This document shows positions 6,382-44,977 of a stretch of 64,000 nucleotides of DNA, piece by piece. Within the stretch, counting starts at the first letter, position 1. Each line of letters starts with the position of its first letter. The position numbers and the translations under genes are program-made. The stretch lies in sequence record OR062943.1; one strand, 5' to 3'. The notes under the pieces were generated by a model. It worked only from the letters and a program-made list of their open reading frames with translations, ran no database searches and was not told the DNA's origin. The stretch is from Escherichia phage 241Ecol014PP.

Positions 6382-6472
6382 ATAGTATCACCTCTGGTAA
6401 GAGATTGGGATTCCTTTCCCATAAATAATTACAAATCTTCCTTAGCGAGGAAGTATGCTAATCCAAGCAGGA

Positions 6473-6742
6473 TTATTCCTCTACAATCTCATACACATCA
6501 GGAGTTACAATCAACTCTTCTCCGTTACCCGGTGCAACAAACACCACCAAACCTTCAGGTGTGTGCTTTTTAGCCATCTCGATAACATCTTCTCGCAGAG
6601 CTGGCTCCATCAGATCAAAACCTTCACCCAGGGCATCACGAACCACCTTCATATAGTCCACTGGTTGTGCTTCAACAATCATGCCTTCAACCAGTCCACA
6701 GTTTTTGTCTGCCAGCTCAGTTTTGAATAATTTAATTTTCAT
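6473..6742 (-). CDS. hypothetical protein
   Basis: ORF track. Confidence 0.45.
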   Translation of the reverse strand: MKIKLFKTELADKNCGLVEGMIVEAQPVDYMKVVRDALGEGFDLMEPALREDVIEMAKKHTPEGLVVFVAPGNGEELIVTPDVYEIVEE

Positions 6743-6879
6743 TTAGAGGTCTCCTCAATTATTTGATATTAATAGCCGTAACCTAACACATTAACTACAA
6801 CTGCGATTGCAAACATAATTTCAAAGCATGCAATCTCTACATTTGGGACTAATTTCTTAATCACGCCCATTGTAGCACC

Positions 6880-7197
6880 TCATTCTCCAAAGTCAATCTT
6901 TACTTTGCCTTTCCCCTTACCTTTCTTTCCACTACATTTAGCCAACTGACGTGCTGCAACATCTACCATACGGTCAGTTGCCTCGTAAGCATCACTGCCT
7001 TTAGCTTTGGCAATAACTTCTTTTCCAGAATTGTCAAAAATGAACGCCATAACTTCCTGGTGATCATTTTCAACTTTTACACTCACACGTGCATAGTTGG
7101 CAGAGGGGTGCAAACGCTCCAGCTTAGACATTTTGTGAGAAATGAAAGACACCATACCTTCAGTGATTTCTACGTTGCCAGTGATTTCAATTTGCAT
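6880..7197 (-). CDS. hpf: ribosome hibernation promoting factor / RaiA (S30EA) family homolog
   Basis: MQIEITGNVEITEG...KLE...VKVE...ARQLAK matches recalled E. coli HPF (MQLNITGNNVEITEA...ARQLTK); lysine/glycine-rich tail. Confidence 0.65.
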   Translation of the reverse strand: MQIEITGNVEITEGMVSFISHKMSKLERLHPSANYARVSVKVENDHQEVMAFIFDNSGKEVIAKAKGSDAYEATDRMVDVAARQLAKCSGKKGKGKGKVKIDFGE

Positions 7198-7249
7198 AAC
7201 GTGTTCCTTTTAAAGAAGAGAGAATAACAACCATCTCTCTTTGAAAACA

Positions 7250-7278
7250 ATAATACTATAGCTGAAGCGTTGTGTCAA
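7250..7278 (-). promoter_or_regulatory. sigma70-like promoter (minus strand): TTGACA-17-TATTAT upstream of hpf-like gene
   Basis: Reverse complement of 7250-7278 reads TTGACAcaacgcttcagctatagTATTAT. Confidence 0.45.
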
Positions 7279-7284
7279 CAGTTT

Positions 7285-7575
7285 TTACAGGTTGTTGTCA
7301 ATAGTATCTAAAATAGCTACAGCAAGATCTGCCATTTTTCGAACATACTCTGCAAACTCAACAGGATCCTTGATCAAAGAATTCACAGGGTCGTACCCTA
7401 GAGCGTTCAAAATGGCTGCAGCATCTACAACCTTCTCATCATTTGCGAAGATCTCTCCATCAAACTTGTAGGTCCATTTTGAGTCAATCTTGGCAGGGAA
7501 GGATTGGTCAACACTTGTTACACCATCGTCTTTAAACTCTCCTGCGTTATCAATATTCAGAACTAAATCCATCAT
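7285..7575 (-). CDS. hypothetical protein
   Basis: ORF track. Confidence 0.45.
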   Translation of the reverse strand: MMDLVLNIDNAGEFKDDGVTSVDQSFPAKIDSKWTYKFDGEIFANDEKVVDAAAILNALGYDPVNSLIKDPVEFAEYVRKMADLAVAILDTIDNNL

Positions 7576-44125: not shown

Positions 44126-44200
44126 GCCCTGTTAGCTTAGTGGATAAAGCAGCGGCCTTCTAAGCCGTTGACACTGGTTCGAGTCCAGTACGGGGTGCCA
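44126..44200 (+). tRNA. tRNA-Arg (anticodon TCT), CCA encoded
   Basis: Manual cloverleaf: acceptor GCCCTGT/ACGGGGT (two G-U), D GCTT/AAGC, anticodon loop CTTCTAA. Confidence 0.75.
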
Positions 44201-44330
44201 AGTTCTTTTTAATGTAGCTTACTTTAGCAGAGTAAATCTTCGGCAAGTGGCGGTAACCACTTTACCGATACCTCATAGTTAGTGGTGAGAACACTAGCTA
44301 TTTTAAAAAGAATTTAAATATTAGTATTTA

Positions 44331-44418
44331 GGTGAGTTAATTCCGTAGGGGTAGCGGGGCAGACTGTAAATCTGTTATCATTGCGATTCGGGTGGTTCGA
44401 CTCCATCACTCACCACCA
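44331..44418 (+). tRNA. tRNA-Tyr (anticodon GTA), class II, CCA encoded
   Basis: Acceptor GGTGAGT/ACTCACC; anticodon arm GCAGA-CTGTAAA-TCTGT as in recalled E. coli tRNA-Tyr. Confidence 0.8.
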
Positions 44419-44532
44419 AATTTATATTTTTAAATGCATAAATCATACAGATAATGGCATTGATATTTATCGTCGTTTATACTAGTCACTAACTGCTCGA
44501 AAATCAGTGTCATTATCAGTATTGTTTATAAA

Positions 44533-44623
44533 AGAGGGTAGGGAGCAATGGTGCTCAAGCGGTCTTGAAAACCGTCCCGTTGAGGATGACTCGATGATGG
44601 TTCGATTCCATTATCCTCTGCCA
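44533..44623 (+). tRNA. tRNA-Ser (anticodon TGA), class II, CCA encoded
   Basis: Acceptor AGAGGGT/ATCCTCT; anticodon loop CTTGAAA; long variable arm. Confidence 0.7.
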
Positions 44624-44721
44624 TATTGTTGACCTTGTAATTAAGCGAAAGCCGGAAGCAGAACCGGATTATCAAATGTTACAGTCGTCATCGCCGACTA
44701 GCAACATGGTCAACATACTGA

Positions 44722-44820
44722 GCTAGGTAAGCCCTTTGGCAAGGGCGAGGATTTTTAATCCTGAAAATAGACGAGGTAGTCGTTGAATACATAGGTGGTT
44801 CGATTCCACCGCCTAGCACC
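44722..44820 (+). tRNA. atypical ~97-nt tRNA-like element; anticodon unassigned (possibly TTT)
   Basis: Perfect acceptor GCTAGGT/GCCTAGC and T-arm GGTGG-TTCGATT-CCACC, but 65 nt between acceptor and T-arm. Confidence 0.4.
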
Positions 44821-44825
44821 TTTTT

Positions 44826-44901
44826 GCTGATGTAGCACAATTGGTAGTGCAATTGATTTGTAATCAATAGGTTGCAGGTTCAAGTCCTGCCATCAGCACC
44901 A
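44826..44901 (+). tRNA. tRNA-Thr (anticodon TGT), CCA encoded
   Basis: Full canonical 76-nt cloverleaf; anticodon loop TTTGTAA. Confidence 0.85.
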
Positions 44902-44902
44902 T

Positions 44903-44977
44903 GGCCCTGTAGCTGGAAGGTTCAAGCAAGCGACTCATAATCGCCAGACGGTGGTTCAATTCCACCCAGGGCCACCA
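44903..44977 (+). tRNA. tRNA-Met or tRNA-Ile2 (anticodon CAT), elongator type, CCA encoded
   Basis: Acceptor GGCCCTG/CAGGGCC paired at 1-72; anticodon loop CTCATAA. Confidence 0.8.

Follow-up and report, generated by a model that had tools for sequence, protein, structure and literature searches.

Positions 6437 to 7278 of a 64,000-nucleotide stretch of DNA from Escherichia phage 241Ecol014PP (sequence record OR062943.1; the whole stretch is referred to here as the window) hold a short gene related to the ribosome hibernation factor HPF, a promoter of its own, two further ORFs and a hairpin, all on the minus strand. The features are as follows.

7250..7278, minus strand: sigma70-type promoter (P144 of phage rV5), with the -35 hexamer TTGACA at 7278-7273, a 17-nt spacer and the -10 hexamer TATTAT at 7255-7250
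7198..7249, minus strand: post -10 spacer and predicted 5' untranslated leader, with a presumed transcription start
6880-7197, minus strand: hpf-like gene, counterpart of rV5 ORF144, with an ATG start and a product of 105 aa, MQIEITGNVEITEGMVSFISHKMSKLERLHPSANYARVSVKVENDHQEVMAFIFDNSGKEVIAKAKGSDAYEATDRMVDVAARQLAKCSGKKGKGKGKVKIDFGE
6925..7197, minus strand: S30AE / HPF domain, residues 1-91, from Pfam, TIGR00741, PDB matches, AlphaFold and Foldseek
6883..6924, minus strand: Lys/Gly-rich tail, residues 92-105 (KGKGKGKVKIDFGE), predicted to be disordered
6880..6882, minus strand: stop codon TGA of the hpf-like gene, from the sequence and the ORF list
6473..6870, minus strand: two co-oriented ORFs downstream of hpf, possibly on the same transcript
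6769-6870, minus strand: ORF for a 33-aa hydrophobic peptide (phrog_15151; 'putative membrane protein' in some records)
6473-6742, minus strand: 89-aa ORF (phrog_11868, function not assigned in PHROG)
6453-6437, minus strand: terminator-like hairpin (CTTCCTCGCTAAGGAAG then ATTTGTAATT), 20 nt past the 89-aa ORF

By sequence comparison, the 105-aa product is a phage-encoded homolog of the S30AE (HPF/RaiA) family with its own near-consensus sigma70-type promoter, which is what the first-pass annotation had claimed. In Pfam, residues 3-91 match PF02482 (Ribosomal_S30AE) at 49.2 bits, above the curated cut-off of 23.7 (E 9.4e-13), and the match spans 86 of the 88 profile positions. The NCBIfam model of the HPF/YfiA family, TIGR00741, gives 46.5 bits against a cut-off of 40.9; the family cut-offs are passed in both collections, and the predicted fold agrees. 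Among all PDB chain sequences, the best matches are E. coli HPF (2rql, 4v8h, 6h4n; E ~4e-12). The HMMER alignment with E. coli HPF runs end to end, residues 1-91 against 1-91, and it contains each of the blocks that the first-pass annotation had matched to HPF (MQ.ITG(N)NVEITE, KLE, (L/V)KVE and ARQL.K). Pairwise identity is 40% with E. coli HPF and 21% with E. coli YfiA. The Lys/Gly-rich tail noticed at the first reading is likewise present, as KKGKGKGKVK.

The gene, its promoter and its identity were already known from GenBank record DQ832317, from a genome paper in 2013 (Kropinski et al. 2013, PMC3606486) and from a functional paper in 2019 (Mizuno et al. 2019, Nat Commun 10:752, PMC6375957). 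The present analysis adds selection estimates, record counts, a divergent syntenic ortholog, the variation of the tail and the conservation of the promoter. Record DQ832317, from rV5, lists the gene as ORF144 (ABI79209, 'sigma 54 modulation factor') and the promoter as 'Sigma70-type promoter; P144'; the window has the same gene, with a protein 99% identical and with position, neighbors and P144 shared. A single residue separates the two proteins (S89 in the window, G89 in rV5), and there are small differences in the loop of the 5' leader. Other records name the gene hpf, ribosome hibernation factor or RaiA. In four records (OR062525, OR062530, MT884008 and MT884010), hpf is annotated as 'ATP-dependent protease La type I'.

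Over the 2.5 kb that surround the gene, the window is about 97% identical to more than 100 Vequintavirus phages in GenBank, including rV5, FV3, FFH2, Murica, V18 and the rV5-like phages of the BASEL collection. This surrounding 2.5-kb region was matched in 120 records, and tblastn found the protein in 118 phage records, in 117 of them at an identity of at least 91%; hpf is therefore a core gene of the genus Vequintavirus. For 18 of the records, which are labeled 'Campylobacter phage' (MG0656xx), the host label is doubtful because they are about 97% identical to the rV5-like region of E. coli phages. In the same phage collection, tblastn at E <=1e-5 gave no match in phages of other genera, and the HPF of Cronobacter phage GAP32, which is also a phage S30AE protein, was not retrieved at this threshold. 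A weak profile match (E 9e-7) connects the protein to the S30AE proteins of phrog_8990, whereas the window gene sits in a separate group, phrog_12469. Vequintavirus phages are widely used for biocontrol of E. coli O157 and are present in the BASEL collection; hpf is a core and strongly constrained gene of this genus.

This constraint is seen in the rates of substitution. Among 12 phage copies compared pairwise by the Nei-Gojobori method, dN/dS is 0.03-0.15, with dS up to 0.84, and the hpf-like gene is under strong purifying selection. Phage copies of ribosome-associated proteins have been reported to be under purifying selection before (Mizuno et al. 2019, PMC6375957). It could be supposed that hpf is a decaying passenger gene, or moron, without function, given that the Murica copy is truncated to 99 aa and that the length of the tail varies. 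However, the low dN/dS and the retention of the gene in 118 records and in a divergent relative, promoter included, speak against this idea, which the selection analysis effectively refutes and which is now barely credible.

The divergent relative is a syntenic ortholog of 103 aa (P0004) with 65% identity to the window protein. The contigs that carry it are of phage size (about 125-137 kb), and only patches of them align with Vequintavirus; the ortholog gene is preceded by the same AAAAACTGTTGACA -35 region and followed by the ortholog of the 89-aa neighbor. Synonymous sites are saturated between the window lineage and this lineage, and still the proteins are 65% identical. A scan of IMG/VR yielded only two further loci, and a word-indexed protein search only five clusters, all of phage type. 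An exhaustive search of 1.8 billion representatives with HMMER found the nearest cellular proteins at only 30-45% identity, with E 2e-7 or weaker. Because the nearest cellular relatives are so distant, the phage lineage appears to be old and divergent rather than a recent pick-up; a recent capture from E. coli was considered and is ruled out by the ~40% identity to E. coli HPF together with these weak cellular E values. Its sequence places the origin of the gene in the short HPF lineage of the S30AE family; the gene is found in essentially all members of the genus. The second-best match of the representative search, a 1160-aa repeat protein (P0006), was discarded as spurious, because its score adds up eight weak, partial alignments to residues 35-81 of a repeat unit.

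The predicted structure leads to the same family. An AlphaFold2 model from a 27-sequence input has a mean pLDDT of 82, with values of 80-93 over residues 1-90; the input alignment itself included HPFs, and the fold is a prediction. The model has strands at residues 2-7, 33-43, 46-55 and 60-67 and helices at 13-29 and 70-90, giving the order beta-alpha-beta-beta-beta-alpha. When this model was compared with the PDB by Foldseek, all 36 significant matches were S30AE-family ribosome-associated factors (HPF, YfiA/RaiA/protein Y and relatives). The top matches, V. cholerae HPF (4hei) and ribosome-bound E. coli HPF (6h4n_x), have target-normalised TM-scores of 0.90-0.93 and rmsd values of 1.0-1.1 A, those for the superposition on 6h4n_x being 0.90 and 1.1 A. 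Of the 36 positions with at least 60% consensus among cellular homologs, 24 keep the family consensus in the phage protein. The residues retained include T12 and G58 as well as K22, K25, D69, Y71, D75, R83, Q84 and K87, which are conserved from short HPF; the basic residues of helices 1 and 2 are among the family-conserved residues that are kept. The changes from consensus in the phage clade include K80 to V (T in P0004), M70 to A and K89 to S.

Within the family, the protein is nearest, by sequence, to the short HPF subfamily. Like the short HPF (YhbH) of E. coli and V. cholerae (2rql, 4v8h, 6h4n, 4hei), it has one S30AE domain, equal in length and in the order of its secondary structure; the identity is about 40% and the predicted rmsd about 1 A. 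The short HPF equivalog model, NF007780, gives 56.1 bits, below its cut-off of 125, yet it is the best-scoring subfamily; the YfiA / RaiA equivalog, NF007654, gives 18.1 bits against a cut-off of 158. Whereas short HPFs have about 95 aa and nothing beyond helix 2, the phage protein has 105 aa and a tail of 14-15 residues. It also differs from short HPF in the changes at K80, M70 and K89, and its gene lies outside an rpoN operon, in a block of small phage ORFs with its own sigma70 promoter. The C-terminal dimerisation domain that follows a linker in long HPF (Firmicutes, Thermus and others) is absent: the protein stops at residue 105, Pfam finds no second domain, and residues 92-105 are predicted to be disordered. 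The fold is shared with E. coli YfiA / RaiA (protein Y), which likewise extends at its C terminus past helix 2, and RefSeq calls the phage protein 'ribosome-associated translation inhibitor RaiA'. However, because the RaiA equivalog score is 18 bits against 158 and the identity with YfiA is 21%, this product name is a family-level label only.

The tail deserves separate consideration. It is 10 residues longer than in short HPF, and AlphaFold2 gives it a pLDDT below 50 throughout residues 92-105. Residues 91-105 carry a net charge of +4, and mostly because of this the predicted pI is 8.7, versus 6.5 for E. coli HPF. The YfiA tail, in contrast, is acidic (-4), and the two tail sequences are unrelated; the phage extension is thus not of the YfiA type. 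Among the relatives, indels of GK repeats change the length of the tail (proteins of 103-106 aa), in Murica it is cut back to leave a protein of 99 aa, and in P0004 a different tail, likewise basic, stands in its place. The tail is therefore basic in every phage copy compared, though its sequence varies.

The promoter matches the consensus at 11 of 12 positions, in agreement with the TTGACA-17-TATTAT element on the coding strand that had been proposed. The -35 box and the adjacent upstream AAAAACTG are invariant across 12 relatives, including the divergent locus L005, whose protein is 65% identical. The window has 14 promoter-like sites with at least 11 of 12 matches, while composition-preserving block shuffles give 1.8 +/- 1.4, with a maximum of 6, and the match at P144 is more than chance. 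Each of the 14 sites is on the strand that carries the tRNA genes and all inspected ORFs of that part of the window. Eleven of them lie on the minus strand, at 1.2-35.6 kb, and three on the plus strand, at 40.5-58.7 kb; thus, the direction of transcription would switch between about 36 and 40 kb. In rV5, 33 sigma70-like promoters have been predicted, spread over the entire genome, and it has been suggested that the host polymerase is perhaps not reprogrammed as it is in T4 (Kropinski et al. 2013, PMC3606486). A search of the literature found no transcriptome for the rV5-like phage group, and the early expression supposed in the first-pass annotation is suggested by the type of promoter alone.

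Translation of hpf would start from a Shine-Dalgarno sequence, AAGGA, at 7209-7205, 7 nt ahead of the ATG. A hairpin in the leader, at 7241-7216 on the minus strand, is formed by purine/pyrimidine tracts (AAGAGAGA...TCTCTCTT) and was considered as a regulatory element. It was rejected: at -9.3 kcal/mol (z -0.6 to -0.8) it is no better than shuffles, it has A-C mismatches in two natural variants (YN3/Mangalyan and nomo/Murica/V18), and it is missing from L005. Between rV5 and the window, its stem differs by GGG/CCC versus AGA/TCT, a change that looks compensatory. An Rfam search of positions 6400-7400 gave no match. Another promoter-like site, at 6896-6869 inside the 3' end of hpf, was also rejected; it cannot serve the 33-aa ORF because its -10 hexamer overlaps the ATG of that ORF.

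Downstream of hpf, the 89-aa gene is kept at the same position in L005 with 58% identity; no 33-aa ORF is called at the corresponding position there, where the gap from hpf to the 89-aa gene is only 83 nt. In records of pangalan and nomo and in APECc02-derived records, the 89-aa ORF is itself labeled 'sigma 54 modulation factor', but a second gene of this kind was rejected. Since the ORF has no Pfam S30AE match and no BLASTP similarity to the hpf product, the label looks mis-propagated. The 33-aa ORF, too, lacks an S30AE signal, and PHROG and Pfam assign no function to any gene neighboring hpf. As judged from its position, the terminator-like hairpin at 6453-6437 could be the end of a P144-hpf-orf33-orf89 transcript; it is kept only in near-identical relatives and is absent from L004 and L005.

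While the identity, the distribution and the selection of the hpf-like gene are settled, its action has to be argued from the protein and from one published experiment. In the explanation that fits best, and about which confidence and doubt are evenly balanced, the protein is transcribed from P144 and occupies the decoding channel of the 30S subunit as HPF and RaiA do, thereby parking idle ribosomes. Unmodified host sigma70 RNA polymerase would transcribe hpf from its own promoter. The product, to judge by its conserved residues and modeled fold, would bind at the site used by HPF and YfiA/RaiA, as by the other S30AE domains characterised so far, namely the tRNA/mRNA channel that separates the head of the 30S subunit from its body, and once bound it would hold non-translating ribosomes in a parked, reversible state. 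In YfiA, the C-terminal tail reportedly clashes with RMF (Polikanov et al. 2012). By analogy, the disordered Lys/Gly tail may, besides adding non-specific affinity for rRNA, extend towards the RMF site and fill or cover it. This would leave an inactive 70S ribosome, independent of RMF, rather than a 100S dimer. The phage might benefit because the host ribosome pool would be controlled or preserved while it infects the cell, for instance when the host grows slowly or starves.

The experiment that bears on this model was performed with the rV5 protein. Mizuno et al. (2019, PMC6375957) listed the S30AE/HPF proteins of rV5, FV3, FFH2, JES-2013 and others and placed them among gammaproteobacterial HPFs. 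When rV5 HPF was expressed from pBAD24 in E. coli NM522, its peptides, including the C-terminal VKIDFGE, were recovered in crude extract, but 70S and 100S ribosomes, spun down through a 500 mM NH4Cl cushion from uninfected cells at an OD600 of 1, yielded none (PMC6375957). Phage bS21 and bL12, unlike rV5 HPF, were found in purified ribosomes, and the 100S peak was unchanged on expression of rV5 HPF in cells harvested at an OD600 of 1 (PMC6375957), a further difference from short HPF, which turns RMF-induced 90S dimers into 100S. The authors listed growth phase, stripping by salt and a genuine loss of binding as possible reasons (PMC6375957). The literature search found no later functional work on an HPF of rV5-like phages; the hpf of rV5 phages has since been mentioned as an auxiliary gene 'as already described' (Mathieu et al. 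2020, PMC6969025).

How much weight should be given to this negative result? High-salt washes commonly strip cellular hibernation factors from ribosomes. The conditions of the published experiment could not have detected salt-labile binding, and because it combined a 500 mM NH4Cl wash with uninfected cells at the end of exponential growth, the negative is weak evidence. It does, nevertheless, lower the models in which the protein binds the ribosome. In addition, cultures that expressed rV5 HPF from the overnight pre-culture on still reached an OD600 of 1 (PMC6375957), and this growth argues against strong inhibition of translation in growing cells.

The presence of the protein in the extract, together with its failure to appear in the salt-washed ribosome fractions (PMC6375957), would also be expected if the S30AE fold had been kept while the ribosome channel was abandoned, the basic two-helix face and the tail now binding another RNA or a host or phage protein. 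The divergence of the lineage, which falls under the HPF and RaiA equivalog cut-offs and whose nearest homologs in the 1.8-billion-protein library reach only E 2e-7 or weaker, would agree with such an exaptation, as would the shift in pI from 6.5 to 8.7. On the other hand, the most-conserved S30AE residues are retained, the modeled structure deviates from ribosome-bound HPF by about 1 A, and the negative experiment used the 500 mM NH4Cl wash (PMC6375957); an abandonment of the ribosome is judged rather unlikely.

The same authors had proposed that a viral HPF might compete with its cellular homologs and so prevent ribosome dimerisation (Mizuno et al. 2019, PMC6375957). In this version, weak or transient binding in competition with host HPF, YfiA and RMF would prevent or dissolve 100S ribosomes and free them for phage mRNAs. 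Loss of the well-conserved K80, M70 and K89 would fit weaker binding, as would absence from salt-washed ribosomes (PMC6375957), and the C-terminal extension could clash with RMF like the YfiA tail. However, 100S ribosomes were not decreased on expression (PMC6375957), and a basic tail of +4 should raise, not lower, the affinity for rRNA. Furthermore, because any S30AE domain in the decoding channel blocks the binding of tRNA and mRNA, occupation alone does not release translation. An anti-hibernation role is judged unlikely.

Parking of idle ribosomes through occupation of the 30S channel is instead favored by the family scores, the fold, the residues kept, dN/dS, the distribution, the syntenic ortholog, the basic tail and the accumulation of the full-length protein in E. 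coli. The points against it are the lack of peptides in salt-washed ribosomes, the unchanged 100S peak, the changes at K80, M70 and K89, an HPF score below the equivalog level and a cellular identity of only 30-45%. The unchanged 100S peak would, however, also fit an RMF-independent inactive 70S ribosome.

Cellular hibernation factors are also reported to protect ribosomes from ribonucleases. An overlapping explanation is that the phage protein occupies the decoding center of idle ribosomes as a shield, guarding 16S rRNA or the A-site mRNA from host RNases and from the nucleases of abortive-infection systems or toxins. A conserved core gene that is under strong selection in a lytic phage and is driven by a host-type promoter would suit this purpose. 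However, the neighboring genes have no assigned function, and protection as the main role is given a slim chance. A broader form of the idea, somewhat easier to entertain and still distinctly doubtful, is a functionally distinct, RMF-independent hibernation factor expressed from a host-type promoter, whose basic tail substitutes for RMF or blocks its site and which shields idle ribosomes from nucleases and defense toxins or acts in starved cells. If so, the gene would be a viral counter-defense or ribosome-preservation device and not a simple copy of the host HPF. Phage copies of ribosome hibernation factors are a recognized curiosity and hint at lytic phages manipulating the idle ribosomes of the host.

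Elsewhere in the window, a tRNA cluster lies at 44126-44977 on the plus strand, where ARAGORN calls Arg(tct), Ser(tga), Thr(tgt) and Met(cat), as well as an odd 99-nt 'tRNA-???' with a 4-base anticodon at 44722-44820. Rfam calls neither the Ser gene nor the odd 99-nt one; it does call an extra tRNA, at 44331-44415, that ARAGORN missed.
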